The notes: a model not told the origin generated them from the sequence alone. Positions 3,410 to 52,616 are shown, counted from the stretch's first letter. The stretch is DNA of 64,000 nt from an uncultured virus (IMG/VR IMGVR_UViG_2563367173_000013) (IMGVR_UViG_2563367173_000013); one strand, 5' to 3'. Translations and numbers: made by a program.

Positions 3410-3421
3410 CCCCCCCCCCCC
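3410..3421 (-). repeat. G12 homopolymer on the coding strand
   Basis: 12 consecutive C on the + strand. Confidence 0.95.
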
Positions 3422-4526: not shown

Positions 4527-4553
4527 AATTTTAGATCTCCTGAATTTTATACA

Positions 4554-10086: not shown

Positions 10087-10108
10087 TTGCTATACAGTAT
10101 ATATACCA

Positions 10109-11047: not shown

Positions 11048-11073
11048 TTTAATCCTCCATTTGAAAATATCCC

Positions 11074-28193: not shown

Positions 28194-28517
28194 TTAAAAT
28201 ATATATATAAATTCATTCAACTCTTTTTTATTATCTTTTATTTCTAAATCAACTGGTTTATTTTTCATCGCTGCAACTGATACAGGTTTTACAATATTCT
28301 CCATATAAGCATCTGCAGACCACAAATCTTCTAATTTTCTCTTTAGCTCTGTAATTGTTTCAAACCCATATTCCTCTATATACGCAATTCCATCATGTAA
28401 ATCAAAGCAGCTTTTTGCATTCTCATCTTTCTTTGGATAATGATAATTTCCCGTAAATTGAACACTCCAATCATATATCCTATCTGTTTCCTTTTTTTCC
28501 ATGCTTTTCTTCTCCAT
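28194..28517 (-). CDS. Small soluble protein with C-terminal EFIYIF (tyrosine-tail family, copy 3)
   Basis: Clear paralog of 31578..31889 (DRIYDWSVQ, FDLH.G..YI.EYG). Confidence 0.8.
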   Translation of the reverse strand: MEKKSMEKKETDRIYDWSVQFTGNYHYPKKDENAKSCFDLHDGIAYIEEYGFETITELKRKLEDLWSADAYMENIVKPVSVAAMKNKPVDLEIKDNKKELNEFIYIF

Positions 28518-28526
28518 AATTTCAAA

Positions 28527-29361
28527 TCAATTCTTTAGTCCCAATACATAAAAAAAACCTGGATAATATTTTTTGCATTTTAAGTGCTGCATACCAATGG
28601 CATATAATTTTTTCTCCATCGCATATAATCTATCCAAATTGTCAATAGCTTCATAATTATTAATAGATGTACTAACAAGGCTTACACTCGTTTCTCGAAA
28701 AATTTCAACGATCTCCTTCAATGTATGCTGCGACTCATATGGATGAAGTACCTGATCCAAAAACCAGCTTCTTGCCTGTTCATCATCTTCATGCCTTCCA
28801 TCCAATTCTTTGTATTTTCTAAATAGGCTGTCTTCATCCATTCCTTTTTTTCTCATTTCATTAAAATAATTCAAAAAAGGTGCTCTACCATATTTATGAT
28901 ATAGTCCTATAAAAATCCTTCCTCCTTGCTTTGTTAAATCTACACAATGTATTACCCCCCCCCTTAACATCCGAAGTATGATGTAAAACACCGTTTGAAA
29001 TAACAATATCTTTAGGCTCGCACTGATATTGGAACAAATCCGCACATTGAAAATCGAGATCTGTACCCAATATCTCCATACATTTTTTAGCGGAATCAAC
29101 AGCAACTGAATTAAAATCTATCGCCGTTATGTTTGTCCCATAATAATATGCAATCGAATTACTCAGCCATCCTGTTCCACACCCCATTTCCAGAAGAGTA
29201 TCTGCCTCGTAGAAATCCTCAATATTGGGATAAATATCAATTACAAGATTTTTTTGTTTTATAATTTCCGCCATAGTTTCCGGCGATCTCATAGTATTAA
29301 ATGGAAGTCGCTTATAAAATTCCAACACATCATTCCTAGCGCCTGTATATTGAACATTCAT
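28527..29361 (-). pseudogene. Class I SAM methyltransferase frameshifted at G9 (28955-28963); possibly phase-variable
   Basis: LEMGCGTG, SNGVLHH. G8 would read DVKGGVIHCVDLTKQGGRIFIGLYHKYGR...WFLDQVLHPYESQH. Confidence 0.85.
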
Positions 29362-31090
29362 TTTTATCCTCCTGTTCATTTTGTATTTTATGCTTAACAG
29401 TTTCTTCAATATCCTGTTTCATCGCATTAAAGACATGCTCTGCAATAAGTTTATTTGCTTCAACTGAATAATGGCACTCATCAATATACATATCTTTTTT
29501 TCCTTCCAACATAGATGCCAGATTTATATAAAACCTGTCTGTCTCCATCAAAGCCCTACTCTTATAAGCTCCTACATTCTTTGACTTCTCTGTATTATTA
29601 AATATACTTGTTGATACTAAATCAACTGTTTCGTCTATACTTATCATTGGCTGCAAAAAACTATATACTTTCGCTCCATGATACTCTGCAACTAACTTCA
29701 TGACTTTTGATATACGGCACCAAAAATCATACAACTTCTCACTGCTTTTTATTCCACTAATCATATCATTATCATATTTTAATCTTCGTTTTCCAAACTC
29801 TATATTAAATTGATTTGCAGCTTTTTCATTAATTGTGTTATTTATACCACTAAAACTAATAACATAATCAGGTCGCAAAGGCTCTATATCTCGCATCATA
29901 TGTAAAAACTCATCTACAATTCCATATCCACCTACTGCACCATTATAAATTATAGGACTGTATCCAGCTTCTCGCATCCTTTCATACAAAAAGTTCACCC
30001 ACGAAACAATTCTATATATATTACTAGTCGATGTCGAATTTCCAACTATCATTATCTTTACTTTCGCATATTTTTCATCTCCGTAAACGACATATCCCGG
30101 ATATCTTTCCGTCGCATAACTGTTACTCACTAAAAGACTATCACTTTTCGTTTCCTTATAATATGCATATGGTTTATATGTACAACAAATAATCGCTGTA
30201 TAGTTTAATTTTTCCAAACTAAATCCCAAACTGTCGAGTACATCGCAAACTCGCTCACTCTCATAAACATTTTTCTCCGCAACAATTACGGTGATATGTT
30301 TAATATCCTCATGCACAAGCTTGTATATATCTTTACCATAAATTTCTTGATTGATATCAATCTGATATTTCTTTAAAATCTCTTTCAAATATTGGGCATT
30401 CTCATCTCCATTATTATACAACCATATTTTGTTGTGTTGTAATAATGCAATATTAATTATTTGGAAAAAATTCCCCCCTGCATAATCTTTTCTAAAAAAA
30501 GGAATATACTTTTCTATCTTGAGATCAACCAACTTCTCCAGCATATTCTCTAAAGTAATCCAATTATCAGTGGCCAGTATAACAGAACAATTACTCTCAT
30601 GTTTGATCTTTTCTATCGAAAGTATCTCTTTCCCGTACCATCTGTTGACCCTTCCCAGTTTTGTGACACATGCACCACAAGGTTCTATTCCGTTCTCTTT
30701 TAAAGTATCATATATATTTTCTCCCCTTTTGTCTATTCCATATATATATATCCTCTTGTTATTCATCTCTTCATTAACTTCAAGAACTTCATCTTTATAA
30801 AATACTTCTATCCCTTGTCCAGCACACTTCTGTATCTCTTGTTTTTTACATACTTCAGGTATTATTATAATAGCGTTATTTATACTTCGCAACTGAGCAG
30901 TATTAATAATATTCCTGTTAACAAAATACTCTCCTGTAAACTTGTCATCTGCATCCCAAAATGCATGGATATTCACTTTATGGTTTAAAACAAGGTCCGT
31001 AAAAAGATTTATCGAAGTACGGCTCACTCCATAAACGATAATCTTCTTATCCTTGTATCTTTGCGATAACATATATAAACATTTGAGCAT
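29336..31090 (-). CDS. SGNH-fold paralog 3 with two N-terminal Rossmann-like modules
   Basis: VGNSTS, NGAVGGYG, FSGINN, FLQP, YIDECHY. Confidence 0.85.
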   Translation of the reverse strand: MLKCLYMLSQRYKDKKIIVYGVSRTSINLFTDLVLNHKVNIHAFWDADDKFTGEYFVNRNIINTAQLRSINNAIIIIPEVCKKQEIQKCAGQGIEVFYKDEVLEVNEEMNNKRIYIYGIDKRGENIYDTLKENGIEPCGACVTKLGRVNRWYGKEILSIEKIKHESNCSVILATDNWITLENMLEKLVDLKIEKYIPFFRKDYAGGNFFQIINIALLQHNKIWLYNNGDENAQYLKEILKKYQIDINQEIYGKDIYKLVHEDIKHITVIVAEKNVYESERVCDVLDSLGFSLEKLNYTAIICCTYKPYAYYKETKSDSLLVSNSYATERYPGYVVYGDEKYAKVKIMIVGNSTSTSNIYRIVSWVNFLYERMREAGYSPIIYNGAVGGYGIVDEFLHMMRDIEPLRPDYVISFSGINNTINEKAANQFNIEFGKRRLKYDNDMISGIKSSEKLYDFWCRISKVMKLVAEYHGAKVYSFLQPMISIDETVDLVSTSIFNNTEKSKNVGAYKSRALMETDRFYINLASMLEGKKDMYIDECHYSVEANKLIAEHVFNAMKQDIEETVKHKIQNEQEDKNECSIYRR

Positions 31091-31577
31091 AAATATACCT
31101 TCCTGTTCTGTCAAACCCTAAAATTTTAAATTTACAAGATTTAACGTATTTTTTTATCTCTAAATAAAGCTAATAGTGTTGGGTAGTCAAGGTATCATGT
31201 ACTAAACATGTATAAAAATGCTTACAGTAAAATGTGAATCACAGTTTAAGGAGAATTTATCCCAAAGTTAAGAATCATAACAGGATATGTTAACTAAATT
31301 AAGGGGCAAATTCTCCACAAAGTGGTGAGTACAGATCATGGGAATAATTTTTCAAACATGCTCTAAATATTTTTTTTGAATTCGTAGTTTACAATTGCAT
31401 TCTTTAATCAATCATAGTAATAGTATTCGTTATAGACACCTTACATATTTATTAGATTATTACCCACAAGCGACTAGTCAATAACTGTCCAAAATTACAT
31501 AGAATATCTTTATTATCAGCCCTTTGTATAGTTTAAATTATACAGAAATCTCCCATTCGCTTAACTGTTTTACATAT

Positions 31578-31889
31578 TTAAAAAATATATATATAATCAT
31601 CTAAATTTTTTACATCTGCCTTTGTTTCCCAATGATTTGGCTTGCCTTTCATTATGGAAATTGCTACTGGCATTATAATTTTCTCCATACAGGCATCTCC
31701 AGACCATATACACTCCAGCTCCATTCTTACTTCTGCAATTGTTTCTTTCCCCCCATACTCTTTTATATAGGTATCCCCTTCATGCAAATCAAAATAACTT
31801 TTTGCATTTTTATCCATCTGAGGATAATCATAACTTCCCTTTTGCTGAACACTCCAGTCATATATTCTGTCTATTTCTCTATTTCTCAT
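31578..31889 (-). CDS. Small soluble protein with C-terminal DYIYIF (tyrosine-tail family, copy 2)
   Basis: Starts 17 bp after the carbamoyltransferase stop; paralog of 28194..28517 and 48960..49283. Confidence 0.8.
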   Translation of the reverse strand: MRNREIDRIYDWSVQQKGSYDYPQMDKNAKSYFDLHEGDTYIKEYGGKETIAEVRMELECIWSGDACMEKIIMPVAISIMKGKPNHWETKADVKNLDDYIYIF

Positions 31890-31906
31890 ATATCTATACT
31901 CATTCC

Positions 31907-33742
31907 TTAATCCAATTCATAACGTTCCTTCCAGTTTTCATTTTCATACCATTCTGGCTGTTCCTCTTTTTTGAGCAGAATATCTTCCAAAACCAGCACA
32001 TCCATGTCTGTGCGCATAAAACATTCATATGCTTCCTGCGGTGTACATACGATTGGTTCTCCCCTGACATTAAATGAAGTATTGACTACAACACTGCATC
32101 CTGTAATTTTTTTAAACTCGTTGATTACTTCATAGAAATATGGATTTTTCTCTTTTGAGACAGTTTGCACCCTTGCGCTATAGTCCACATGTGTCACAGC
32201 TGGAATATCCGACCGCTTTTTTTTCACAATTTCCAACATGTTGCCATCATATTTTTTCAAATTTTCTTTCAGTTCAAATGCATTTCTCCTGTTCCTGCCC
32301 ACAGCTGCAGTTAAAAGCATATATGGACTGTCATCATATAATTCAAAATATTCTTCCACATCTTCCCGTAGCACTGAAGGCGCAAATGGCCTAAAAGACT
32401 CTCTATATTTAATTTTCTGATTGAGCTTCACCTGCATAGTTTCAGAACGTGCATCCGCAATAATACTTCTATTTCCAAGCGCCCTTGGTCCAAATTCCAT
32501 TCTCCCCTGAAATAATCCAATAACCTTTTCATCTGCCAATTCTTCAGCTATCTTTCTATATATTCCGTCACCTAATTCATGATACAAATATCCATTCTTA
32601 TTTAGATAATTCTTTATTTCCACATTCGAAAATTTTGGACCAAGATAACTACCCTTTTGTGAATCGTCAGATTCCACTCTGCGCTCACACCCAAAATATC
32701 CATATGCTGCATACAAGGCACAGCCTAGACTACCTCCCGCATCACCTGCCGCGGGCTGAATCCATATATTTTTGAATATGCCGCTTTTTTTTATCTTCCC
32801 ATTTGCAACACAATTCAGTGCAACACCACCTGCCAAAACCAGATTATCAATTCCTCCGCCATAGCTTTCTTTTGCATGTCTGGTCATCCGCAGAATAATG
32901 TCTTCCGTTATCTTTTGAACAGACGCGGCAATATCCATCTCTCTTTTTGTAATTTCTGATTCCGGTTCCCGACGCGGCCCACCAAATAACTCCTCCATTT
33001 TTTTGTTCGTCATAGTTCGTCCATACTGATAATCAAAATAATCCAGACACATCTCAAAAGAACCATCTTCTTTAATGTCCAGCAATTTTTCCCGTATTAA
33101 ATCTTCATAAATCGGCTCACCATATGGCGCTAATCCCATAAACTTATAGTCACCTGAGTTTACCTTAAATCCACAAAAATAAGTGAAAGCACTATAAAGC
33201 AATCCCAATGAATGGGGAAACCTCAGTTCTTCCTTTATTTTGATTTTTTCTTTGTCTCCGATACTAATTGTTGTAGTCGCCCATTCGCCAACTCCGTCCA
33301 GAGTTAAGATTACTGCTTTCTCATATGGTGATGGATAAAACGCAGATGCCGCATGAGAAATATGATGTTCACAAACAAGAAATTTACGATTCGAATTAAC
33401 CCCCAGCAATGTATCTACTTTTTTATGTATCCACATTTTCTCAGAAAACATCGTATCAAAATTGCGATTTATCACATCCCTTGAATCTGCTCCAGCTGCC
33501 AGTATATTCTTCATATAACGATCAAGTGTTTTAAATGGATTATCATAAAACACCACTGCAGCTAAATCCGCGCCTGTGATATTTCCTTCCTTAAGACAAT
33601 AATCCACTGCATTCTCTGGCAAATGCCAGTCATGCTTTATCCTTGTAAATCTTTCTTCCTGCGCTGCTGCAATAATATCTCCATCTGATATTAATGCAGC
33701 AGCTGAATCATGATATAATGCAGATATTCCTAATATATACAT
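31907..33742 (-). CDS. O-carbamoyltransferase (NodU/CmcH/SxtI family)
   Basis: LGISALYHDSAAAL, QEERFTR, EHHISHAASAF, DGVGEW, LAGGVALNC, EFGPRALGNRS, NTSFNVRGEP, C-terminal WKERYELD. Confidence 0.95.
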   Translation of the reverse strand: MYILGISALYHDSAAALISDGDIIAAAQEERFTRIKHDWHLPENAVDYCLKEGNITGADLAAVVFYDNPFKTLDRYMKNILAAGADSRDVINRNFDTMFSEKMWIHKKVDTLLGVNSNRKFLVCEHHISHAASAFYPSPYEKAVILTLDGVGEWATTTISIGDKEKIKIKEELRFPHSLGLLYSAFTYFCGFKVNSGDYKFMGLAPYGEPIYEDLIREKLLDIKEDGSFEMCLDYFDYQYGRTMTNKKMEELFGGPRREPESEITKREMDIAASVQKITEDIILRMTRHAKESYGGGIDNLVLAGGVALNCVANGKIKKSGIFKNIWIQPAAGDAGGSLGCALYAAYGYFGCERRVESDDSQKGSYLGPKFSNVEIKNYLNKNGYLYHELGDGIYRKIAEELADEKVIGLFQGRMEFGPRALGNRSIIADARSETMQVKLNQKIKYRESFRPFAPSVLREDVEEYFELYDDSPYMLLTAAVGRNRRNAFELKENLKKYDGNMLEIVKKKRSDIPAVTHVDYSARVQTVSKEKNPYFYEVINEFKKITGCSVVVNTSFNVRGEPIVCTPQEAYECFMRTDMDVLVLEDILLKKEEQPEWYENENWKERYELD

Positions 33743-33755
33743 ATATTTTCTCCAA

Positions 33756-34999
33756 TCAATTATAATAACCCGCCTTTTCTGTCAACTCCATTTTATTACA
33801 TACCTTCTGAGGTTTTTTCCATATAATTTTTTTTCCTTCCACCCCAAGCTGGCACAAATCTGATAAAATAGAACACGCTATATCTTCTTTAGAAACTGCC
33901 ACAACAATGACATCGAAGTTTAGTTCTTCCAATATATCATTTCCCCATACTCTGCAATAAGCGTAATGATATTGTTCATAATTTGAGTCAATCCAAGCCA
34001 CTATCTCACAACTACCATATTCAGATATCTGTTGATAATAATCTCTTCCTACTCCTCCTGCACCATACAAAACAATTTTTTTTCCGATAATTCTTCTATA
34101 TTCCGAAATCGCCACACATACTCTGATTTTATCTGAAATCTTTCACCCAGCTTTTTTAGAATCAGTCTCCACATATAATTATCGTCCACTTGATTCACGT
34201 CATCAATCAATTCATTATAACAATCATATTTTTTTAATATCTTGTTTAACTCAATATATCCCAAATATCTGTCTGCAATCCTTTTAAAACTTGTATTATG
34301 TCCCAAAGAATCATTTCTTTTAACATAATGATAATTTGCACCACCTGTCATAACAAAACGCTGTGACTCCAAAAATACAATCAATAATGAAATGACATCA
34401 TCATGTTCTTTACAATGATCAGGAATCTGCATATAAGCATTCCGCAGTCGCTCAGCTCTATACAACTTATTCCATAATGCAGTCATATTTCTTTTTCTCT
34501 CACAGTGATCAGTTATCGTTCTAAAAAAATACTTGCGTATAATAGAATATCTACGCTCACCTGACAATTCAAATGTTCCTTTCGCATCAGCCGCAACTAG
34601 CCTCCCATACTCTTCCCATCCCTCAAATACATATCCCGTCACTGCAAAATCAGAATTAGTATCCACAATTTGTCTCAATAACTGTTCATACATAATCTCT
34701 TCTATCCAGTCATCTCCGTCTACTCTGCCTATAAAATCACCCTTTGCTATGCTTAATCCAGTTTTGGTTGTAGCTATCAACCCTTTATTATTCACATGAT
34801 GAATAACCTGTATTCTATTATCTTTCATCGCATATGTATCACAGATCAAGCCTGATTGATCTGTAGACTTATCATCTACTAATATAATCTGAAGGTTTTT
34901 ATATGTCTGGTTGCAAATACTTTCAATGCATTTGCCCACGTAATTTTCTATATTATACACAGGTACAATAACTGAGATCAAATAATCTTCTTTCACCAA
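33756..34999 (-). pseudogene. GT2 glycosyltransferase whose C-terminal Rossmann-like module is out of frame at A8 (34076-34083); catalytic part 34049..34999 is intact
   Basis: ISVIVPVYN, VDDKSTD, VDGDDW, LWNKLY. A9 would read SEKKIVLYGAGGVG. Confidence 0.7.
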
Positions 35000-36720
35000 A
35001 CTCCCTCCCCGTGTTTCATCTTACTTAAAAGCGTTTTTTCAATATCATTTTTCATAATATCAAAAATTCTCTCTGCAATTAATCTATTTCCTTCCGTAGA
35101 ATAATGCGCTTGGTCTATATACATTTTATCTTTTCCCTCAAACATTGATATCAAATTTATATACTCCATATTCTTATCCATAAATGCTCTGGTCTTATAA
35201 TATCCTATGTTTTCCGTATGATCCTCGCTATTATGTATACTTGTTCTTATTAAATCAGGTGTATCATCTGAACTTATCATTGGCTGCAAAAAATTATAGA
35301 CCTGCGCTCCATGATAATTAGCCACCAAATTCATAAGCTTTGATATACGATGCCAAAAATCATATAATGTCTCATTGCTTTTAATTCCGCTAATAACATC
35401 CGGATTACTATTTATTTCATACTCTCCCACACATGTATTAAACTGATTTGCAGTTGCCCGATCTGCTGTGTTATTTACACCACTAAAATTAATTATATAA
35501 TCAGGTTTTAATGGCTCAATGTCCCTTATCATATGTAAAAATTCATCCACAATTCCATGTGCACATACTGCCCCATTATATATCACTGGACTATATTCTG
35601 CATCTAATAAATACTTATAAAAAAAACTTACCCAAGAACTACACCTAAGTACCTCATCTGCCGAAGTAGAACCACCTAATATCATTATTTTTACTTTTGC
35701 GTTTTTTTCATTTCCATAGACAACATAACCTGGATATTTTTCTTCTTTATAAATGCTATTTCCTATCAGCGTATCCCTTTTTTCTATTATATGATCCGCT
35801 ACTTTCCAATTGCATATGCTTGTTGCAGCATAATTAAAATCTTCCAGACTCCATCCCATACTGTCAAGAATATCGCATACACGCTCTGCTTTTATTTCAT
35901 TATTTTCCAAAATTATTACGTTTATATTTTCACTGTCTTCATAATAAAGATTATAAATATTCCGATCACAAATTTTACATTCAATGTTTATTCCATATCT
36001 TTTCAATACCTTTTCCATATATAGCGCATACTCGTCGTCCCTACTATATAACCATATTTTTTTATGTCTCAATAATGCAATATTTATTACCTGAAAAAAA
36101 TTAGACTGAGAACAGGATCCCCTATGCATCGCATAAAAAATATACTTTTCTACTTTATAATTTTTTAATTGTTCTAGCATCTCTTTTAAAGAATGCTCTA
36201 TATCTGTTGCCAAAATAACAGCACTGCTATTTTCCTGCTCAATCTGTGTTACTGAAAGGACCTTTTTTCCACACCATTTTTCTATCCTTCCAGGTTTTGA
36301 AACACATACACTTGCAACTTCTATTCCTTTTTCCTTTAACGTATCAAATACGATCTCGCCTTTTCTACCTATACCATAAATATAAATTTTTTTATCTTTT
36401 AACTCTTCATTTATATCCAGAATTTCCTCCTTATAAAACACATTTTTTTGAATCCATTGCTGTATACTTTGTTTTTTAACTAATCTGGATACAACCACAA
36501 TAGCATCTTCTATTTCCCGAAGCTGAATGGTATTAATAATAGGTCTGTTAATAAGCATTTGTCCTGTAAATTTGTCGTCTGCATCCAAAAATGCAACGAT
36601 ATTCATTTGGTGATTAACTGCAAGATCTGAGAAGAGTGTTATAGAAGTATGTTTTACCCCAAAAATAACTATCTTTTTATTCTTATATTTTCTAGAAAGT
36701 GTATACAAACTTTTCAGCAT
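34993..36720 (-). CDS. SGNH-fold paralog 2 with two N-terminal Rossmann-like modules
   Basis: LGGSTS, NGAVCAHG, FSGVNN, FLQP, YIDQAHY. Confidence 0.85.
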   Translation of the reverse strand: MLKSLYTLSRKYKNKKIVIFGVKHTSITLFSDLAVNHQMNIVAFLDADDKFTGQMLINRPIINTIQLREIEDAIVVVSRLVKKQSIQQWIQKNVFYKEEILDINEELKDKKIYIYGIGRKGEIVFDTLKEKGIEVASVCVSKPGRIEKWCGKKVLSVTQIEQENSSAVILATDIEHSLKEMLEQLKNYKVEKYIFYAMHRGSCSQSNFFQVINIALLRHKKIWLYSRDDEYALYMEKVLKRYGINIECKICDRNIYNLYYEDSENINVIILENNEIKAERVCDILDSMGWSLEDFNYAATSICNWKVADHIIEKRDTLIGNSIYKEEKYPGYVVYGNEKNAKVKIMILGGSTSADEVLRCSSWVSFFYKYLLDAEYSPVIYNGAVCAHGIVDEFLHMIRDIEPLKPDYIINFSGVNNTADRATANQFNTCVGEYEINSNPDVISGIKSNETLYDFWHRISKLMNLVANYHGAQVYNFLQPMISSDDTPDLIRTSIHNSEDHTENIGYYKTRAFMDKNMEYINLISMFEGKDKMYIDQAHYSTEGNRLIAERIFDIMKNDIEKTLLSKMKHGEGVW

Positions 36721-36816
36721 CTATGTTCCTCCATTTTTTTAATATAAAAGGTGACCCAAGAAATCTATTTTTTAAAATCTGTTTCATAAGTTTATAATTA
36801 CAGTTAAGTCACATTT

Positions 36817-37725
36817 TTATTTATAACAGTCAACCACTATACTATACACAGGTTTACATACTTCTCCCTCTTTCGGAATCCTGCTGACATATCCTTTCGA
36901 CATATCAATCTCCTTTTTTACCAGATTTCCGTCTTCCGTGTGATAACATAAAAAATCTATTTTTTCAAACAATGTCTTTTCCAGTAATTTTCGTACAAGA
37001 GCATATGTGGGAAACCATACATGACCTCCATTTTCAATACATCCCGCACCAAAAGTTCCACCTCCTGTCGGATCAAAAATAATTTTTCCTGTACTATCTC
37101 TCATAGAAATGTCAGATAGATATTTACTATTGTAATCCGGCAAGCATATTCTAAATATTCCATTTTTTCTCAAAATACGATATATTTCATTAATCACATC
37201 AACCAACTTTTCATATTCTATGTGTTCTAAGACATCTTCTGCCTGATATGAAAAAATACTGTTATCTGATAATGGATATCTATAAGTGATATCGTGTAAA
37301 ATATGTTTTGAATCCGCTTTCATAATTGACAAACCATACAGATCAGGATTATCCCTATGTATATCATCTATTATGTCCCCTGCATACAACGCAATTTTTC
37401 GCGATAAATCCAGCCTTTCAAAACACATTCTGTCGTATTGCAAAATCTTACCGTTTATATATATACCTTCAATGCGAATACCATACTCCTCCAATTCTTC
37501 CCCTATGACAAACCATTTATTGGCTGCAATAATAACAGAGAAATCTGTGACTGATTTTAAACTTAATAAGTCACTCAATGATAATATTTTATATTTTCCC
37601 ACTGTATTATTCTGTTTATATGGAGAGTTGTCTGCAAATCCGATAATTTCATACTGGCCACTGTCTACAAGTGACCTATAAAGTCTTACTCCCCCCATTC
37701 CATATCCAAAAATTATAATTTTCAT
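36817..37725 (-). CDS. Methyltransferase-domain protein with N-terminal Rossmann-like module
   Basis: DVLEHI, EIYRILRKNG.FRICLPD. Confidence 0.75.
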   Translation of the reverse strand: MKIIIFGYGMGGVRLYRSLVDSGQYEIIGFADNSPYKQNNTVGKYKILSLSDLLSLKSVTDFSVIIAANKWFVIGEELEEYGIRIEGIYINGKILQYDRMCFERLDLSRKIALYAGDIIDDIHRDNPDLYGLSIMKADSKHILHDITYRYPLSDNSIFSYQAEDVLEHIEYEKLVDVINEIYRILRKNGIFRICLPDYNSKYLSDISMRDSTGKIIFDPTGGGTFGAGCIENGGHVWFPTYALVRKLLEKTLFEKIDFLCYHTEDGNLVKKEIDMSKGYVSRIPKEGEVCKPVYSIVVDCYK

Positions 37726-37734
37726 AGTCGCTCC

Positions 37735-38751
37735 TTATAATTCATTTTTTAGCGATAAATGTTGACAATTTAACGTGACATCGTATGTGTACAACGATGC
37801 ACTCTCATTATATTTACACTCATGCATTATAAATCCAAATTCATCCATACGATTCGGCGGTATGTATATGCCACAAGCATTATTGTCCGTTACATAAACA
37901 TGTTCAAACGCATCCTCTAATACATCATAAACCGCATGAATCACTGGCGTTTTATACTCAGCATTTGTATACTTAAAATCATGCCATACGACAATTGCAT
38001 CTTCTTTTTTATTCATAAAAATATTTTTTGTATCATTATAAACCCCTTCATAACTATGATCTCCATCTATAAAATACAGATCAACAGTATCTGCATGCTT
38101 TGAAAAATCAAATTGTCTTGAATCAGTATAATAACTGACTATATTTTCGTTCGTTGCCAACTTTCCTATAAAATTTGTCCTCCAAGACGGTTTAAACTGT
38201 TTCATCGCTTTTTCAATTGGCAGCGTCACACTATATAGTTTTTCACAGCAATCAGTCAAAATATTTATACTTTCTCCTATATAAGTTCCTACCTCTAAAT
38301 ACTCTTTACTGCCACTTTTTATTGCAATAAGCTTTAAAAACATATAATCTAAAATATGTGAACCTCCCGGAATAAATGTAATCTCCCTGCAATACAGGTT
38401 TTTATTTTTTTCTAACCAATCTCCTAAATTAATTGTTCTTTTATCCAGCGCCTCTTCCACAACTTTTGATAAAACCGGTTCAAAGCTTAATTTCAATAAC
38501 TCAATATTCTTGTTGGTAATCCCCATACACCTTATATCAGTTAATACTTCTTCATACTGAAAAACAGCAATTATAATTTTAATGTCTGAATACTCTTTCA
38601 ATTTTCGTGGTAAATAAACTGGTACAGCATCATATTCCTTTATTATTTCAGCATTTTTATCTACAAAAAAAAGAATATCATATCTATTTTTGCAATATTC
38701 ATATGCAAGCTTTCCTATCTTTCCACATCCATAAATAACAACCTTATTCAT
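37735..38751 (-). CDS. Class I SAM methyltransferase (Methyltransf_24-like) with N-terminal Rossmann-like module
   Basis: YLEVGTYIGES, DLYFIDGDHSYEGVYND, VVWHD. Confidence 0.85.
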   Translation of the reverse strand: MNKVVIYGCGKIGKLAYEYCKNRYDILFFVDKNAEIIKEYDAVPVYLPRKLKEYSDIKIIIAVFQYEEVLTDIRCMGITNKNIELLKLSFEPVLSKVVEEALDKRTINLGDWLEKNKNLYCREITFIPGGSHILDYMFLKLIAIKSGSKEYLEVGTYIGESINILTDCCEKLYSVTLPIEKAMKQFKPSWRTNFIGKLATNENIVSYYTDSRQFDFSKHADTVDLYFIDGDHSYEGVYNDTKNIFMNKKEDAIVVWHDFKYTNAEYKTPVIHAVYDVLEDAFEHVYVTDNNACGIYIPPNRMDEFGFIMHECKYNESASLYTYDVTLNCQHLSLKNEL

Positions 38752-38807
38752 AATATCTCCTCGTTCCTTTTTATATATTATTCTCTCTTAGAAACTGAAA
38801 TAAAAAA

Positions 38808-39632
38808 CTAGTGCCCTGTAAAGTTTAAAAGTTTATCAAAATTTATTCCGGGTGTTTGGATTGAAACACCCGGTAAAGAACTAATTTTCAAATATTGATG
38901 TAAGATATAAGCGTTTTAGTTTTACTCTTGCATCCTTAGTTGTAAACTACCAGTTCACAACTTTTTGACGCTGGTTGCGGTCTCTTTCCCATTCGGTAAG
39001 CATTTCATTGAGTTCTTGGATTTCAGGGATCCTCTTGTTTCCCAAACACTGCATGGATAAAGATCCTAATTCACCAAGATGATCCTTGTGACATCTGGAT
39101 AATAAGTTTCTGATACGCTTTTCATCATTTTTGCAAAATCACCCATTGTCCTGTGTTCCAACGCTTCAGTGTAGAGCCAGCCGCTGAGCGGTTCCGTAAA
39201 CATAAATATGCTGGCTTTCCCCATGCGGATGTATTCAAAATCAATTTTTTGAACGGAACCCAGCCTCTGGATATCTGTTTCCGGATCTGTTACCATGGGC
39301 TTCATGCTGATCCGTTCACAGATTTCGCCAAGCAGTTGGACAGGTTTTTCATCCATACAGGCAACAGGGAGAAACACGCCAAATATTTCGGACAGTTCCC
39401 TGTTGCTTTTATTTTTTCAGAAAAAGAATCATTTGTGTTCAGCAGGATATTTTGTATGCATGATTGTTTTGCAGATGAATGTCCGTTTTTGCGGATGTTG
39501 TTCAAAACAACAATGTCATCATCTGTTAAAAATACCTGATAGTTTTTCTTTGGCATAAGAATACACTCCTTTTTACCTGAGTATATCATACCGGTTTGTT
39601 TTGATAAACTTTTAAACTTTACAAGGCACTAG
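38808..39632 (-). mobile_element. Internally deleted IS630-family element with 34-bp terminal inverted repeats
   Basis: CTAGTGCC[C/T]TGTAAAGTTTAAAAGTTTATCAAAA at 38808-38841 and inverted at 39599-39632 (1 mismatch). Transposase fragments CMDEKPVQL, DFEYIRMG, FTEPLSGW and W*FTTKDARVKLKRLY. Confidence 0.9.
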
Positions 39633-39742
39633 TATGTTACATCGTACAATATTCCTCGCCGATATTTTTCTTAAAAGTGCAAAAAAACAATCGCTTATTC
39701 TGGTAGTACGCTATAGCCAAGACATGTAACTGTTTTTTAGTT

Positions 39743-40960: not shown

Positions 40961-40974
40961 TGATCTCCTTACTT

Positions 40975-43498: not shown

Positions 43499-43499
43499 A

Positions 43500-44841: not shown

Positions 44842-44848
44842 ATTAAAA

Positions 44849-45538: not shown

Positions 45539-45556
45539 AATATATTTTGTTCAGTA

Positions 45557-46717: not shown

Positions 46718-46756
46718 TTCAGTTTCCTTTCCAGCATCTCAAAAATTTCTCTTAAT

Positions 46757-47899
46757 TTACTTATTATTGTACTCATTTTCTACTATACGTGGAATTGCAT
46801 ACAGAATAGTTTCTCCGTATATCATTGCATGTTGACGAATATAATATTTGTATCCCCTCCCTTGAATTTTCATTATAAATTGCATAATACGGTAATAATC
46901 TTCTACACAATGATAAATAGAAATTGCAAGTAACGGCATATCCCTTTTTATTGTATTGACTGCCCCACCAAGTGCCCTCATTTCTGCTCCTTCTATATCC
47001 ATTTTTATCATGTCAACTTTTATATTTTGAAAATATGTATCAATGGTTTCCATTTTACAAACTTCACCCGTACATAATTCTGCATCCTCCACAACCTTTG
47101 AAGAAGCCCCCTGTCCCATCACTGGTAATTCTTTTTGTTCACTCCACAATCCATAATTTTCACATAAACACTTCATTCCTTCTGGAAGAACACTCTTTTC
47201 AATATTATTTAGTAATTTCTCATAATTATTTTTTTCAGCTTCGAAACAATACCATTTTGATACCCATAGACCAGATTCAATAATAGCCCTTAATAGTTCC
47301 CCTGTATATGCACCTGCATCTACTAATGTAAACTTTCTTCCTTGAAAATACTCTTTTACCTCTTTTATAAAATAACTTTCTTCCGTAGTACATACTTTAA
47401 CGATTTCATTAATATCATTTGTTATATAATATTGATATACAGCGTCATAAACACTTTTAGAAAGATCATCTGAAAGATATTTCTTCAATGCATCTGTATT
47501 TCTTTTATACCGAACCAGCCTTTCTCCCTCACAATGTTTTTCCACTACTAATTCTTGCTGGTCTAAAACATCCATATACCAATCATACATTTCCCATATG
47601 GTCACATTTGAAAACACCATCAGTTTGTCATAAATGGTTTTTCCATATATTGAAGTTAAAACAACATTAATACTCTTTTTGCTTTTACAGATTTCTGCAA
47701 ACTCATTATATGAAAGTACATCATATGAAAGTTCTTTTGTCCCGTGCTTCATCAAATCGTCATCTATTAAAGATTCAATCTTTACAGATTCACTTTCTAA
47801 CGCTTTAATACAAATCTTTGCAGTATATCCGGCGCCATACAAATATATCGAATCATTTATAATTTCTTTCGGAATATTATTTTTATCTATTTTCTTCAT
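46757..47899 (-). CDS. FkbM-family methyltransferase with N-terminal Rossmann-like module
   Basis: VDAGAYTGE, IKMDIEGAE, LAISIYH. Confidence 0.9.
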   Translation of the reverse strand: MKKIDKNNIPKEIINDSIYLYGAGYTAKICIKALESESVKIESLIDDDLMKHGTKELSYDVLSYNEFAEICKSKKSINVVLTSIYGKTIYDKLMVFSNVTIWEMYDWYMDVLDQQELVVEKHCEGERLVRYKRNTDALKKYLSDDLSKSVYDAVYQYYITNDINEIVKVCTTEESYFIKEVKEYFQGRKFTLVDAGAYTGELLRAIIESGLWVSKWYCFEAEKNNYEKLLNNIEKSVLPEGMKCLCENYGLWSEQKELPVMGQGASSKVVEDAELCTGEVCKMETIDTYFQNIKVDMIKMDIEGAEMRALGGAVNTIKRDMPLLAISIYHCVEDYYRIMQFIMKIQGRGYKYYIRQHAMIYGETILYAIPRIVENEYNNK

Positions 47900-47953
47900 A
47901 TAATCCTTTCCATTACATAACATAGTGATGACGCTTCAGTCCTTAACTAATTA

Positions 47954-48889
47954 TTATTTAATATTGTTATAAATATCCTTCATACTTTCTTTTACTTCTT
48001 TATAAATACTTTCAATGCCAACCCGGTTCATTTCTTTTATCTGCGTATAGGTGCCATACCCTTTCGAAAACCCATGTAGTCCTATTCTTTTCTGTCTGGC
48101 ATTCATTCCTGTCTCAGCAATAACTTCCGCAACTGCACTTCCAAGTCCTCCGGTCACATTATGATCTTCTATCGTTATTATCTTTCCTGTCTCAACAACT
48201 GCTCGAATAATGATATTTCTATCAATAGGTTTTATTGTATGCATATTGATAACCCGTGCATCAATTCCATCTTTTCTTAACTGCTCAGCTACATTTAATA
48301 CATCCTTCAAAATACTGCCTATGCCAATCAGTGTAATATCCTTGCCCTCTCTTAAAGTAACAGCCTTTCCAATCTGAAATTCATAATCACTTTCATATAT
48401 TTCTGGTTCCTTATTTGTTCCAAGTCTTAAATATATAGGCCCCTTATGTTTATATGATGCCAATGTTGCTTTTCTTACTTCCAATGGACTTGCCGGACAT
48501 AAAATTGTCAGATTCGACAATGCACGTAATCCACCCAAATCCTCTGTAGAATGATGCGTTGGTCCCAATGCACTGTATACTTCCCCTGCGCCTGTTCCTA
48601 CGATTTTCACATTCTGATTTTGTAAGCATACATCATTCCTTATAAATTCAAACGCACGATACGCAAGGAATGCCCCGATTGTATATGCAAATGGTATCTT
48701 TCCACAGCTTGCCATACCCGCTGCCATGCCAATCATATTTGCCTCTGAAATACCAAGATTTAAATATTGCTCTGACAAATCTTTACGGTATCTGTCATAT
48801 ACAATTGCACCATTATCAGAAATCAAAGCATATACCCTTTTATCCTTTTGCGCAATTTCATATAACGTGTCTAAATATGCTGTTCTCAT
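47954..48889 (-). CDS. Transketolase C-terminal subunit
   Basis: LGISEANMIGMAAG, GPTHHSTED, IKPID, EDH..GGLGSAVAE. Confidence 0.92.
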   Translation of the reverse strand: MRTAYLDTLYEIAQKDKRVYALISDNGAIVYDRYRKDLSEQYLNLGISEANMIGMAAGMASCGKIPFAYTIGAFLAYRAFEFIRNDVCLQNQNVKIVGTGAGEVYSALGPTHHSTEDLGGLRALSNLTILCPASPLEVRKATLASYKHKGPIYLRLGTNKEPEIYESDYEFQIGKAVTLREGKDITLIGIGSILKDVLNVAEQLRKDGIDARVINMHTIKPIDRNIIIRAVVETGKIITIEDHNVTGGLGSAVAEVIAETGMNARQKRIGLHGFSKGYGTYTQIKEMNRVGIESIYKEVKESMKDIYNNIK

Positions 48890-48959
48890 TTTAAGGCCCT
48901 TTCTGATGATCTATTTTTGTATAAATGTTATTAACTCTTGTTATCCAATATTTTGACAA

Positions 48960-49283
48960 TTAAAAGTTATAAATATACTCTCGAATCCCCGTACTCTTCT
49001 GTACAGATTTTATATTATCTGTTGTCTTAACCTTAGACATCCCTTCCAAGACCGACCTTATACATTCCCCTTTTACTTCTGCTAATACTTTATCAAAATA
49101 CTTTTCCATATATTTCTCTATGTCAAATTTATCATTAATCTCGTATTCTTCTAATATGGGCTGCTTTTCTATATCTATAAAATAGGTATTTATTTCATCA
49201 TCTATTTCACCAAACATAACTCTACCTTCTTCATGTCTCGATTTTTCACAAACCCATTTATACAATCTTTCCTTGCTAGTCAA
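48960..49283 (-). CDS. Small soluble protein with C-terminal EYIYNF (tyrosine-tail family, copy 1)
   Basis: Probable TTG start after GAGAGG, overlapping the carbamoyltransferase stop. RLYKW, TYF, LEEY and YIYNF align with the other two copies. Confidence 0.75.
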   Translation of the reverse strand: MTSKERLYKWVCEKSRHEEGRVMFGEIDDEINTYFIDIEKQPILEEYEINDKFDIEKYMEKYFDKVLAEVKGECIRSVLEGMSKVKTTDNIKSVQKSTGIREYIYNF

Positions 49284-51111
49284 GCTGATACCTCTCTTTC
49301 CATTCTGTGTCATTCACCAATGCTTTCTGCTCCGATTTATATAATATATAATCTTCCATACAGAGTACATCCATTTCCGTTCTCATAAAACAGAGATATG
49401 CATCGTGCGGTGTGCAGACAATTGGTTCACCCCGTACATTAAAAGATGTATTTACTATCACTGGACACCCGCTCAATTCATAATATTTCTTTATTATTTC
49501 ATAAAAATCTTTATTATTTTTTTTACTCACAGTCTGCACTCTTGCACTAAAATCCACATGCGTAACTGCTGAAATATCTGAACGCGGCAATTTTGACACA
49601 GCAATCATATCATCATTATTACAATTCAAAGCCTCTTCAACATCAAAATTATTGCACAACGTCTCATTCACTCTTGCACAAAAAAGCATATAAGGACTTT
49701 TCCCGTCCAAATCAAAATATTTTGCTGCTTCTTCTTCCAATACTGCTGGCGCAAACGGTCTAAAAGATTCTCTATATTTAATCTTCAAGTTTATCTTCGA
49801 CTGCATTTCCGCACTTTTTGCATTCGCTATTATACTCCTGTTTCCCAAAGCTCTTGGACCAAATTCCATCCTACCCTGAAACAATCCAATAACATAATCC
49901 TCTTTCAGCAGATTTGCCACAGTTTCCGCTTTTTTCCCTTTCACTGAATGATACGCCAATTTATTTCTCCTGCAAAAACTTTCAATTTCAAAGTTATTGA
50001 ATTGTGGTCCAAGAAATGTATATTGAAATCTATTTTCGTTTTTTCCATTTTTTTTCTGTTTCAAATAATCGTAATATCCTAGATATGCCGCTCCAACACT
50101 TCCTCCAGCATCTCCAGCTGCCGGTTGTACCCATACATTTTCGAAAATCTTTTCCTCTTTTAATCTCCCATTAGCCACACAATTGAGAGCAATACCCCCT
50201 GCAAGGACAATATTTTTTCTATGCCCTGTATAATTTACTGCACTTTTTGCCAGTTTAATAACAATGTCTTCTGTAACTTTCTGAATAGATGATGCTATAT
50301 TCATATAACATCTTGTAATATTGCTTTCTTGTTTTCTCCGAGGCATCTGAAATAATTCTTCAAACTTATTATTTATCATATACCTTCCATACTGAAAATC
50401 AAAATATTCAAGATTCAGTCGGAATGAACCGTCTTCTTTAATATCAATCAGGTGATTAGTTATTAAATCATAATACAATGGTTTTCCATATGGTGCCAAT
50501 CCCATCAATTTATATTCACCAGAATTTACCTTAAAACCACAATACCATGTAAATGCACTATACAGCATTCCTAAAGAATGAGGATAATCAATTTTTTTTA
50601 GTAATTCTATTCTGTTTTTGCTACCGTATCCTAGCGTCACTGTATTCCATTCACCCACCCCATCAATTGTCAAAATCGCTGCTTCATCATACGGTGATGG
50701 AAAAAAAGCTGACGCAGCATGTGACATATGATGATTTGCCACCAACAGTTTTCCCGTTTTTCCGATCTGCCCGAAATAACTTTCTAACACTCTATGTACA
50801 ACAAGACGTTTTTGAAAAACATCTTCATGTTGAAACTCTATTAAATCTTTTGCATCATTTCCACAGTACAAAGCATTTTTTAAATACCGCTCTAATGTAA
50901 TAAAGGGATTGTCATAATAAACTACAGCATCAACTTCTTTCAAACTTATCTTTTTATAGTCTAGACAATATCTGATTGCTTGCACAGGAAATGCGTCATC
51001 GTTTTTCATTCTTGTAAATCTTTCTTCCTGGGCCGCCGCAATAATATATCCATCTTCAAGCAGTGCTGCTGCAGAATCATGATATAACCCTGAAAAGCCT
51101 AATACCATCAT
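49276..51111 (-). CDS. O-carbamoyltransferase (NodU/CmcH/SxtI family)
   Basis: LYHDSAAAL, QEERFTR, HHMSHAASAF, LAGGIALNC, EFGPRALGNRS, C-terminal WKERYQLD. Confidence 0.95.
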   Translation of the reverse strand: MMVLGFSGLYHDSAAALLEDGYIIAAAQEERFTRMKNDDAFPVQAIRYCLDYKKISLKEVDAVVYYDNPFITLERYLKNALYCGNDAKDLIEFQHEDVFQKRLVVHRVLESYFGQIGKTGKLLVANHHMSHAASAFFPSPYDEAAILTIDGVGEWNTVTLGYGSKNRIELLKKIDYPHSLGMLYSAFTWYCGFKVNSGEYKLMGLAPYGKPLYYDLITNHLIDIKEDGSFRLNLEYFDFQYGRYMINNKFEELFQMPRRKQESNITRCYMNIASSIQKVTEDIVIKLAKSAVNYTGHRKNIVLAGGIALNCVANGRLKEEKIFENVWVQPAAGDAGGSVGAAYLGYYDYLKQKKNGKNENRFQYTFLGPQFNNFEIESFCRRNKLAYHSVKGKKAETVANLLKEDYVIGLFQGRMEFGPRALGNRSIIANAKSAEMQSKINLKIKYRESFRPFAPAVLEEEAAKYFDLDGKSPYMLFCARVNETLCNNFDVEEALNCNNDDMIAVSKLPRSDISAVTHVDFSARVQTVSKKNNKDFYEIIKKYYELSGCPVIVNTSFNVRGEPIVCTPHDAYLCFMRTEMDVLCMEDYILYKSEQKALVNDTEWKERYQLD

Positions 51112-52616
51112 TTCTCCACTATCCCTTTCCTAATCAAATATTCACACATATATTGCGCTATCATTTCATTTCCATGTTCATTTACATGACACCAATCCAA
51201 ATATACATCATCTGCTCCATCAAACAATGATGTAATATCTGTTCCATATGCTGATATCTGTTCGCATACCTTTTCATAAAAATGTCTTGTATTTTCAAAC
51301 GGTTTCCAGCTTTTCTGATCATAAGATAAATGCAACAAAACCTCATAACCATAATCACTGAGTTTTTCTTTTTTGGCAGGCAAACAAGGTTGTAAAAAAG
51401 CCAAATATGGAATCCCATAACCTTTGCAAATAATGTTCATCATTTTAATATTATCTATAAACATTTGATCATTAGAACGATTATGTTTAACACCTAAAGT
51501 ATATTTATTATCCGTTCCTCTCCAATCATCTTGGTATTCCACCTCCTCTGCCAAATATGCAATAAATCTTTTTTGATAAACATGAACAAAAGGATAATCG
51601 TTTGCTAATGTACTATCATTGACTCCGGTATAATGAATTATTATATCTGGTTTGAGAGGAATAATATCTCTGATCAACTTTCCCAATTCCTGTGGAGTAC
51701 TATACCCTCCACATCCTGCATTCAATACTTTTACGGAATATCCTTTTTTCGTCAGTTTATCAAATAGCAGTTCTGCCCATGACTTATATGAATAACCTTC
51801 TCCTTCTGTAGTTGATCCTCCCAATAAGGCGATTACAATTTTCCCATCTCCTATCTGTACTATTCCAGGCATTGTATCACCATTTTTTTTAGGTTGAAAA
51901 CTGTATCCAAGATTAGGATCTAAAATATATTTTCTTGCTACAGCTGTAGTATATATATCATAACCAGAATAATCTCTTCCCATTGCCAGTCCCATTCTGT
52001 CCAATACTTTCATATTTTCTTTTTTCTCAGACATAACAATCACTTTAATAGCACCTTCTTTTTCATAAAGTAAATCATAAATGGGTTTTACTTGGCTCTC
52101 CCATTGATTACACTCTGATTCTATATCATCAACAAAGTACGCAATTTTTACATCTAACATTTCCAACAAACGTTTCAAGACCGCTGCTTCTTTTCCGGTA
52201 CCATAAATCACAATCTTTCGAATATATGAATCTTGAATAATACGATATAGCCCTCTGAATTGTACTTTTATTCCTAAAGTATTTAAAGTAACTATACTTT
52301 TTATATCATTCCAAACAATAAAGTTCTTTACTCTCTGTTCTTCTAACTTATCAGTAATTTCCTTTGAACATTCTTTGTTCATAAGAGTTACAATAAAATT
52401 ATATTCAGACGGATTTTCCAACACCTTTTCAGGCATTATGACCCTCTTATTAAGGATACGTATTCTTTGTTTTGTACGGTCAGAGTCACAAAACATTTCA
52501 ACTGGTATTCCCATTGCCGCAAATGCAAGTAAAATCTGGACTCCATTCTGCCCCGCACCCCACAATATATTTTTCTTGCCATTATACAGTATACGTTTTA
52601 TTTCATAATCAAACAT
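51108..52616 (-). CDS. SGNH-fold paralog 1 with two N-terminal Rossmann-like modules
   Basis: LGGSTT, NAGCGGY, YTGVND, FLQP, YLDWCHV; overlaps the carbamoyltransferase start. Confidence 0.85.
   Translation of the reverse strand: MFDYEIKRILYNGKKNILWGAGQNGVQILLAFAAMGIPVEMFCDSDRTKQRIRILNKRVIMPEKVLENPSEYNFIVTLMNKECSKEITDKLEEQRVKNFIVWNDIKSIVTLNTLGIKVQFRGLYRIIQDSYIRKIVIYGTGKEAAVLKRLLEMLDVKIAYFVDDIESECNQWESQVKPIYDLLYEKEGAIKVIVMSEKKENMKVLDRMGLAMGRDYSGYDIYTTAVARKYILDPNLGYSFQPKKNGDTMPGIVQIGDGKIVIALLGGSTTEGEGYSYKSWAELLFDKLTKKGYSVKVLNAGCGGYSTPQELGKLIRDIIPLKPDIIIHYTGVNDSTLANDYPFVHVYQKRFIAYLAEEVEYQDDWRGTDNKYTLGVKHNRSNDQMFIDNIKMMNIICKGYGIPYLAFLQPCLPAKKEKLSDYGYEVLLHLSYDQKSWKPFENTRHFYEKVCEQISAYGTDITSLFDGADDVYLDWCHVNEHGNEMIAQYMCEYLIRKGIVEK

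Follow-up and report, generated by a model that had tools for sequence, protein, structure and literature searches.

Small tyrosine-tailed proteins encoded with carbamoyltransferases and SGNH-fold proteins in a viral glycan-biosynthesis island: a possible cytoplasmic carbamoyl relay

Introduction

The stretch of DNA analysed here, called the window below, comprises 64,000 nucleotides (nt) from an uncultured virus (IMG/VR IMGVR_UViG_2563367173_000013). It carries three small genes whose soluble products, of about 105 amino acids (aa), end in a short aromatic motif with a tyrosine at the third position from the C-terminus. Two of these genes directly follow genes for carbamoyltransferases (CTs), and genes for SGNH-fold proteins lie close by. 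A first-pass annotation of the sequence had proposed that the CT loads a carbamoyl group onto the tail tyrosine and that the SGNH protein transfers it to a glycan. The small proteins constitute a new, unannotated family with an essentially invariant terminal tyrosine, linked by an 'obligate' synteny to one clade of CTs and associated with one subfamily of soluble SGNH proteins.

The Small Tail Proteins and Their Gene Neighbors

Three homologous small open reading frames (ORFs) with tyrosine tails had been described in the first-pass annotation, two directly after CT genes and the third after a methyltransferase gene. All three are found on the minus strand with the residues that they were said to share, and the gene order is as described (Table 1). 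The products align over their full lengths. R-x-Y-x-W, F, EY and I-Y-x-F are invariant across the three, and small proteins 2 and 3 are 56% and 24% identical, respectively, to small protein 1. This likeness is homology rather than chance, and the proteins are paralogs, with small protein 1, to judge by the 56% identity, a recent paralog of small protein 2.

Small gene 2 starts 17 nt past the CT1 stop codon. Small gene 3 has an alternative TTG start at 49283, which lies 7 nt behind a good ribosome-binding site, AGAGAGG, overlaps the CT2 stop and gives a product of 107 aa. None of the three proteins has a Pfam (E ≤ 0.01) or NCBIfam match. In particular, there is no Pfam match to PF19451 (DUF5989) and no hydrophobic helix, the top 19-residue hydropathy window scoring 0.3–1.1. 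No signal-peptide-like segment or 19-residue membrane-helix window was found in the small proteins, the CTs or the SGNH paralogs. An AlphaFold2 (AF2) model of small protein 3 (pLDDT 79) has helices at residues 13–27, 62–72 and 75–106, followed by a low-confidence tail at residues 107–117.

Table 1. Coordinates of the features discussed, in the window unless another locus is named.
Feature	Coordinates	Strand	Details
Small tail protein 1	28194..28517	-	107 aa; end NEFIYIF; family profile E 3.3e-32
Small tail protein 2	31578..31889	-	103 aa; end DDYIYIF; family profile E 1.7e-29
Small tail protein 3	48960..49313	-	117 aa from ATG 49313; end REYIYNF; family profile E 4e-22
CT1, partner of small protein 2	31907..33742	-	611 aa; Carbam_trans_N 4e-87, Carbam_trans_C 6e-74
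CT2, partner of small protein 3	49276..51111	-	611 aa; Carbam_trans_N 8e-83, Carbam_trans_C 2e-70
SGNH paralog a	29336..31114	-	592 aa from TTG; likely start an ATG 24 nt further in
SGNH paralog b	34993..36720	-	575 aa; 1.2 kb upstream of CT1
SGNH paralog c	51108..52616	-	502 aa; N-terminal Rossmann-like domains + SGNH domain; Lipase_GDSL_2 45.3 bits
SGNH paralog d, two ORFs	22553..24254	-	SGNH domain 22553-23413; N-terminal Rossmann-like part 23496-24254
Class-I methyltransferase, split	28527..29409	-	ORFs 28894-29409 and 28527-29105; Methyltransf_25/11
Citrate-lyase-ligase-like (CitC-like) protein	25883..28105	-	740 aa; CBS region + C-terminal nucleotidyltransferase domain
Split transketolase	47954-48889; 52709-53551		Pyrimidine/C-terminal part; N-terminal part (Pfam)
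GxGxxG-domain genes (examples)	33756-34115, 36817-37725, 37735-38751, 20106-20501, 8768-9232, 14317-14793		Also the N-termini of all SGNH paralogs
AAA-ATPase + PD-(D/E)XK predicted protein	window 60220-61980; L015 47-3272; L022 5995-7572		PF09820 + PF08011
L152 (G571:C73)	924-4960		CT, DUF5989, 121-aa multi-pass membrane protein, divergent SGNH-like protein; Bacillota
L150 (G115:C12)	7902-11832		Self-tailed CT (590 aa), 712-aa soluble SGNH-like protein after it, 2446-aa ORF before it

A Family Defined by Its C-Terminal Tyrosine

A profile hidden Markov model (HMM) built from five sequences was searched over 1.84 billion representatives. It gave 176 matches at E ≤ 1e-3, of which 42 fall at E ≤ 1e-10, and nearly all are 100–125 aa long. 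Among the 150 matches listed (of the 176), tyrosine stands at position −3 in 141, and the strict end [FY][IV]Y.F is found in 131. Of the nine without tyrosine at −3, six are fragments or truncated sequences, two are large proteins unrelated to the family, and one has an additional F at its end. P0020, ending in YVYNFF, is the only listed match with the longer, FxYxxF-type spacing. The conserved tail does not arise from the profile itself, because a profile of the same five sequences minus the last 12 columns still recovers 137 of the 150 listed matches at E ≤ 1e-3 (full database size); 128 of these 137 end in Y-x-[FLM]. The invariance of the terminal Y-x-F, which the first-pass annotation had put forward for checking with an HMM, is thus borne out with or without the tail in the profile. 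Alignment A3 (140 rows) kept sequences of 90–135 aa ending in Y-x-[FLM] and left out P0128, P0137, P0139 and P0142; the invariance of the tyrosine in A3 is not counted as evidence, since it was built in by this selection of rows.

The layout of members is as follows: an N-terminal EKExLYxWA, SYF, EYxFxTxPEL...W, VAAxKNKP, a charged linker, and LPx[YF][IV]YxF. The linker before the tail varies from 8 to 26 residues and is rich in E, K, D and S. The body evolves fast (15–61% identity) while the tail is fixed, and a natural tandem duplicate, P0103, has kept the tail on its C-terminal copy only.

That the family is unannotated, as had been claimed, agrees with the lack of any Pfam, NCBIfam or PDB relative and with the outcome for ten clusters that were looked up, in which the one named member is a 'hypothetical protein'. 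A word-indexed search found only three relatives of the small proteins. Foldseek against the PDB gave no fold relative at E ≤ 0.001, and VIA-align over 48,161 chains gave none at Z ≥ 5, only single-helix overlaps. A PDB sequence profile returned nothing at E ≤ 10 and the ESM Atlas nothing above 0.84. No protein of 231–2000 aa matched the family alignment, which is weak evidence against fused forms, and the best 120 CT relatives are all 388–627 aa long.

The Partner Carbamoyltransferases

CT1 and CT2 are 55% identical and match both Carbam_trans domains over the full profile lengths. Their PDB relatives are NovN, GdmN and TobZ (E 1e-87 to 1e-107). They are not NodU itself, since on the NodU equivalog model they score 145 bits against a cut-off of 1000. 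The N-domain has weak TsaD matches, i.e., a Kae1/TsaD-like fold.

A tree of 20 CTs unites those with a tail partner of any kind, 11 in number, in one group (support 90/90) and sets the nine without one apart. The group is made up of nine CTs paired with soluble tail proteins, one CT paired with a DUF5989 protein and one self-tailed CT, the latter two being described below. The tree left out the frameshifted or fragmentary CTs of loci L066, L037, L074 and L148 and the broken copies of genome G001, and a tail-less CT is one with no tail partner inside its available flanks. Around the nine CTs of this kind, no Tyr-ended micro-ORF was seen up to a distance of 900 nt. The CTs that pair with soluble tail proteins form a clade, in which CT2 is the earliest branch. 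A C-terminal extension, KEEQ..W..YELD, is common to the partnered CTs, and the others are without it. The distances among CTs and among small proteins co-vary (r=0.81; 4 of 5000 permutations were as high), as is to be expected of co-inherited partners.

The SGNH Paralogs

The first-pass annotation had noted SGNH paralogs with intact blocks and without signal peptide or transmembrane segment. Four are encoded in the window, and the description fits all of them: Ser (GGSTT), Gly (YNGG), Asn (DGxND) and DxxH are present in each, and no membrane-like helix is found. An alignment of 14 proteins shows these blocks in every member. One segment of SGNH c exceeds a hydropathy of 1.6, and this is the GxGxxG strand-helix of the N-terminal Rossmann-like domain, not a membrane helix. 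SGNH c, whose N-terminus has a weak NeuD-like match, alone passes the Pfam GDSL cut-off of 32.9 bits; the three sub-threshold paralogs are homologous to it at 24–26% identity. Among proteins of solved structure, the SGNH domain is closest in sequence to GDSL esterases and acetyl-xylan esterases. The end of the SGNH c gene overlaps the start of CT2 by 4 nt. In SGNH d, a linker of about 40 residues, present between the corresponding parts of paralogs a and b, is missing. SGNH a scores 9.5e-96 against the subfamily profile but is itself a training member.

Several further observations concern these genes. Across 29761-30516, within SGNH a, sequencing runs X1 and X9 carry a diverged sequence instead, and the joint points to a paralogous region; this suggests recombination among SGNH paralogs between strains. 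Beside SGNH d (24779-25728) lie two plus-strand ORFs without a Pfam match at 1e-4, which by eye look like transposase remnants. A 31-codon ORF ending in KFVYTF (36692-36787, minus strand), just upstream of SGNH b, is probably due to chance, as it is an out-of-frame reading of the conserved N-terminus of SGNH b, lacks a ribosome-binding site and has no counterpart before paralogs a and d.

Conservation of the Gene Set in Other Loci and Genomes

Thirteen loci beyond the window were available: three on genome contigs, found by a search with a 10-row alignment, nine from a pattern scan of metagenomes, and one in genome G129. The pattern scan yielded at least nine true family members among the 117 matches listed, most of which are chance matches. 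In nine of the ten outside loci with upstream sequence, the small gene directly follows a CT gene (L013, L015, L022, L025, L059, L066, L037, L074 and L151). This amounts to about seven of eight independent loci, because L025 and L059 are near-identical and L037 and L074 probably so. The exception is L014: there the small gene follows an aminotransferase gene, and after it come a 91-aa ORF, the gene of a citrate-lyase-ligase-like protein and then that of the CT.

SGNH proteins of the window's subfamily are found within 8 kb in all eight loci with long flanks, and the SGNH gene directly adjoins the CT-small pair in L013, L015, L066, L151 and, as SGNH c, in the window. Most of these SGNH sequences went into the training of the subfamily profile; two outside the training set score 8e-61 (L151) and 8e-70 (the second copy in L014). 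The co-occurrence with CT and SGNH genes that the first-pass annotation had named as a check is therefore observed on both counts.

A survey of genomes at the family level points the same way. The SGNH-domain profile detects two of 301 genomes, G001 and G129, both of which also carry the CT-small pair, and the CT profile detects three of 401 (G001, G115 and G129). The small protein occurs in G001 and G129. The G129 copy is divergent, ends in LSLYNYTL and gives a local match of 2.5e-18; since it was missed in the genome-wide count, that count (one real match in 401) is an undercount. With the SGNH subfamily confined to G001 and G129 of the 301 genomes, we take it to go with the CT-small pair and not to be a general ingredient of glycan loci.

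The Third Unit

The gene upstream of small gene 1 encodes a methyltransferase, which takes the donor's place in the module proposed in the first-pass annotation. The methyltransferase gene is frameshifted in a G9 run at 28955-28963, as judged from a three-frame reading. Contigs of runs X1 (an RNA library) and X9 have one base fewer at 28955 and a single intact ORF; in runs X2 and X3, which belong to another study, the tract is G9 as in the window. The length difference is a real polymorphism, and the tract is a candidate slipped-strand on/off switch of a glycan methyltransferase.

The methyltransferase is unlikely to be the donor, as it is frameshifted in the window and is not an acyl activator. 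Directly downstream of small protein 1, at a distance of 88 nt, lies a gene for a CitC-like protein with matches to Citrate_ly_lig (PF08218, 8.8e-31) and TIGR00124 (1.8e-26; 92.9 bits, below the cut-off of 262). Near-adjacency to a small gene recurs in L014, where a protein 41% identical to the CitC-like one is separated from the small protein by one 91-aa ORF. Citrate-lyase-ligase-like proteins occur in four of nine loci. Their (T/H)xGH motif reads DKRH in the window versus TYGH and NIGH in L013 and L014. Since citrate lyase ligase is an acyl-AMP-forming enzyme that loads a carrier, the CitC-like protein is a more natural donor than a methyltransferase, although the DKRH of the window copy departs from the motif of its relatives. 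Small protein 1 more likely pairs with it than with the methyltransferase, to judge by the gene arrangement.

Other Tail Formats on Sister Carbamoyltransferases

CTs were found in 11 of 401 genomes of a phylum-level sample. One of them, in the Bacillota genome G571, is directly followed by a gene for a DUF5989 protein (PF19451, 1.4e-25) that ends in APFVYTLF, an exact FXYXXF motif. The locus also encodes an SGNH-like protein that has three N-terminal membrane helices and is divergently transcribed. SxtK, encoded in the saxitoxin (sxt) cluster, is presumably a DUF5989 member. The G571 locus is a Bacillota version of the sxtI-J-K-L layout. That gene set, which the first-pass annotation had invoked, does exist as described in parts of PMC2679770 and PMC2885083: sxtI, for carbamoylation, is followed by sxtJ and sxtK of unknown function, and sxtL encodes a GDSL homolog. 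The decarbamoylating role of SxtL is, in the passages of these papers that deal with it, a proposal only and was never tested (PMC2679770, PMC2885083). Our literature search found no function for DUF5989. It also found nothing linking carbamoyltransferases to tyrosine shuttles, as judged partly from titles and the openings of abstracts.

In genome G115 the CT carries the tail itself, its C-terminus reading ...GRQIEAIYTFI. The blocks of the SGNH-like protein encoded after it are GES, AGNN and DYCH. In an AF2 model of this CT from a 47-row alignment, the body has a pLDDT of 88.6, and residues 569–590, which include the tail, are below 50 and thus uninformative either way.

The Glycan-Biosynthesis Setting

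The window has a G+C content of about 33%, and its genes lie on the minus strand up to about 62 kb. The GC skew is −0.15 to −0.41 along this whole gene array (1-62000) and shifts to about 0 at 62 kb, the point at which the genes change orientation. About 50 soluble proteins named by Pfam belong to sugar-nucleotide, glycosyltransferase, methyltransferase, radical-SAM and SGNH groups. The pathways include those for GDP-fucose and heptose, and a Stealth protein, a GT-D enzyme and a split transketolase are also recognised by Pfam. Neither Pfam nor a hydropathy scan revealed a polytopic membrane protein, flippase, polymerase or MBOAT among the 61 window proteins scanned. The closest genome examined is G001, which has 93% of sampled words in common with the window and has all three small genes as well, one in broken form. 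RNA-library contigs from two studies span the small genes plus their upstream genes at ≥99% identity; RNA libraries may contain DNA, and contigs reveal no transcript ends. A segment left uncovered at 31252-31448 (two runs of one study) is no evidence of a terminator.

The genes for the two halves of a transketolase are usually neighbors. In the window they flank exactly three genes, those of SGNH c, CT2 and small protein 3 (48960-52616), and this triad looks like a cassette inserted between them. A short Rossmann-like GxGxxG domain stands at the N-terminus of diverse window enzymes, including SGNH proteins, methyltransferases, FkbM proteins and glycosyltransferases. It has weak PglD_N, CoA_binding or NeuD-like matches, occurs also as stand-alone proteins of about 120–160 aa, and may, from its distribution, be a shared docking or nucleotide-binding module. 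A gene-poor gap with short overlapping ORFs extends from 38752 to 39742. Finally, a protein with PF09820 and PF08011 recurs near CT-small loci, with two tandem copies in L015.

A Carbamoyl-Tyrosine Relay and Its Alternatives

The CT, the small protein and the SGNH protein very probably form one functional unit. Our best reading of that unit, which we hold tentatively and by analogy, is a covalent carbamoyl-tyrosine relay in the cytoplasm, from the CT to the tail tyrosine, then to the SGNH protein and the glycan. In this relay the small proteins would be cytoplasmic carriers consisting of a helical domain, a charged linker and the C-terminal [FY]-[IV]-Y-x-F. The activating step would be the one established for the TobZ family, in which carbamoyl phosphate and ATP yield carbamoyl-AMP, and the CT would then place the carbamoyl group on the tail tyrosine. 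The arm would bring the group to the SGNH serine, by analogy with transfer from DltX to DltD and from PatA to PatB, and the SGNH protein would pass it to a hydroxyl of a glycan under assembly in the cytoplasm. Several SGNH paralogs per carrier could serve different acceptor positions from one activating enzyme. The payoff of such an arrangement would be that the activating enzyme has a constant peptide to recognise, the choice of acceptor being left to interchangeable SGNH paralogs. A swinging-arm architecture is suggested by the variable linker, the tail left unstructured in the monomer model, and the tandem duplicate with a tail on its last copy only.

A number of points weigh against a relay. 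TobZ, NovN and GdmN transfer carbamoyl directly to small-molecule acceptors without a carrier, so the chemistry requires none, and these solved relatives are indeed named for their direct small-molecule substrates. Membrane crossing is the reason for the Dlt and Pat relays, and with all components cytoplasmic there is here no membrane to cross. As the first-pass annotation had cautioned, the spacing is Y-x-F rather than Y-x-x-F, the tail [FY]-[IV]-Y-x-F being one residue shorter than the established motif. SGNH genes outnumber carriers, four to three in the window and three to one in L015. The CoA_binding/PglD_N-like domains at the SGNH N-termini would fit acetyl-CoA-dependent O-acetyltransferases as well. 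Carbamoyl-serine enzymes are usually slow in turnover. The clade result is partly circular, because the loci were found via the small protein and kin share labels. The other two tail formats are single examples: DUF5989 exceeds its cut-off in one of the 401 phylum-sample genomes, and no second self-tailed CT was found among 81 relatives of G115.

The small protein may instead be a non-covalent accessory subunit of the CT, and perhaps of the SGNH protein, whose aromatic tail anchors or plugs while the CT carbamoylates the sugar directly. Such a subunit might bring the CT to the complex that assembles the glycan, influence which acceptors are used, or control access to the active site. Synteny and co-divergence fit any obligate partner equally well, and folds of the Kae1/TsaD kind, as in the CT N-domain, work with small partners. 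The Y-I-Y-x-F end alternates aromatic residues like an edge strand, and the direct action of the solved CTs on the substrates for which they are named fits as well. An accessory role leaves unexplained, however, why an invariant tyrosine is held at a fixed distance from the free C-terminus, as in the shuttle motif, why a dedicated SGNH subfamily shares the phyletic pattern of the pair, and why the same kind of tail appears in membrane (DUF5989) and fused versions. We therefore consider an accessory role conceivable but, on balance, unlikely. Another possibility is that the SGNH proteins are esterases or decarbamoylases, or plain O-acetyl transferases, with the small protein regulating, e.g., by placing its tail in an active site, and the CT acting directly. 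The nearest solved SGNH relatives, all esterases, and the excess of SGNH copies over small proteins are compatible with this, as is the removal of carbamoyl groups proposed for SxtL (PMC2679770, PMC2885083), a role that, as said, these accounts leave at the stage of proposal. Yet the translational coupling of the small gene is with the CT and not with the SGNH gene, and a hydrolytic partner beside every CT of the clade would undo the work of the CT. Trimming or regulation of this kind thus seems improbable.

More distant still is the idea of a peptide product, with the small protein as a mycofactocin-like precursor or scaffold whose C-terminal tyrosine is itself modified, by carbamoylation or by a radical-SAM enzyme. 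A conserved C-terminal tyrosine on a small protein would suit it, and radical-SAM/SPASM genes are found within 10 kb in the window, L014, L066, L025 and L059. No such gene occurs in the available 16–20 kb of L013, L015 and L022, while a CT is always present; moreover, all loci are glycan-biosynthesis islands, and no protease or exporter was seen in them. We regard a peptide product as very unlikely.

The carbamoyl relay might also be one case of a general class of tyrosine-tail acyl carriers serving adenylate-forming enzymes, an extension that we find attractive but doubtful. The tyrosine of this CT clade would then come in at least three formats, i.e., on a soluble protein of about 105 aa, on a DUF5989/SxtK microprotein and at the CT's own end, with dedicated SGNH proteins completing the transfer. 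A CitC-like, acyl-AMP-forming enzyme would be served in the same way by small protein 1 of the window and by the small protein of L014, and the carrier would not be limited to carbamoyl. If true, this would explain the long-unassigned genes of the sxtJ/K/L type.

Comparison with Known Systems

Small folded domains with a flexible C-terminal arm and dedicated partner enzymes are known from the LysW amino-group carrier and from ThiS/MoaD, and the proteins described here have the same general form. LysW uses a Glu carboxylate and ThiS/MoaD a Gly thiocarboxylate; the small tail proteins, in contrast, would use a Tyr hydroxyl, and no sequence or fold relation to them was found. Like TobZ, NovN and GdmN, the window CTs consist of Carbam_trans_N (Kae1-like) and Carbam_trans_C (YrdC-like) domains. 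They differ from these enzymes, which act directly and have no tail partner, in the KEEQ..W..YELD extension of tail-partnered CTs.

The DUF5989/sxt set resembles the window family in having a small gene immediately downstream of a CT of a sister branch, a GDSL/SGNH gene in the set and, in the one example seen, a similar tail, PFVYTLF. A DUF5989 protein is unlike the window proteins in being about 50 aa long with one membrane helix, a membrane-anchored SGNH-like partner and a second small membrane protein. The window small proteins have a different body, no membrane helix and no Pfam match.

The closest parallel lies in the DltX-DltB-DltD and PatA-PatB systems. The C-termini of DltX and PatA have an invariant tyrosine in FXYXXF, the peptide of NgPatA being FIYANF, and this tyrosine is acylated and hands its acyl group on to the SGNH partner's serine, as set out in parts of PMC12148441. 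The comparison made in the first-pass annotation is therefore apt, FXYXXF being the established C-terminal motif (PMC12148441). As in these systems, the small tail proteins end in a short aromatic motif with an invariant tyrosine, and an SGNH-fold partner with intact Ser and His is encoded alongside. The motif is on a separate small protein in DltX and on the donor in PatA; here it is on a separate protein, with one self-tailed CT. Unlike in Dlt and Pat, the donor is a soluble, ATP-dependent CT, not an MBOAT, and carbamoyl would be the group passed on. The carrier is a soluble, folded protein of about 105 aa rather than a membrane microprotein, its motif is one residue shorter (FxYxF versus FxYxxF), and the whole system would be cytoplasmic.

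To our knowledge, an acyl-tyrosine shuttle has so far been shown only for MBOAT/AT3 membrane systems that move acetyl or D-alanyl groups across a membrane. If the relay is real, this chemistry extends to the cytoplasm, to a new class of donor enzyme and to a new group, carbamoyl. A first function would follow for the unnamed family, for DUF5989 and for the small CT companions, which carry the label 'unknown' in accounts of saxitoxin clusters going back at least to 2009 (PMC2679770), and the adjacent GDSL/SGNH proteins would be transferases rather than decarbamoylases. The relay would also account for the way in which one activating enzyme, by way of interchangeable SGNH paralogs, can decorate several positions of the surface glycan of a gut bacterium.

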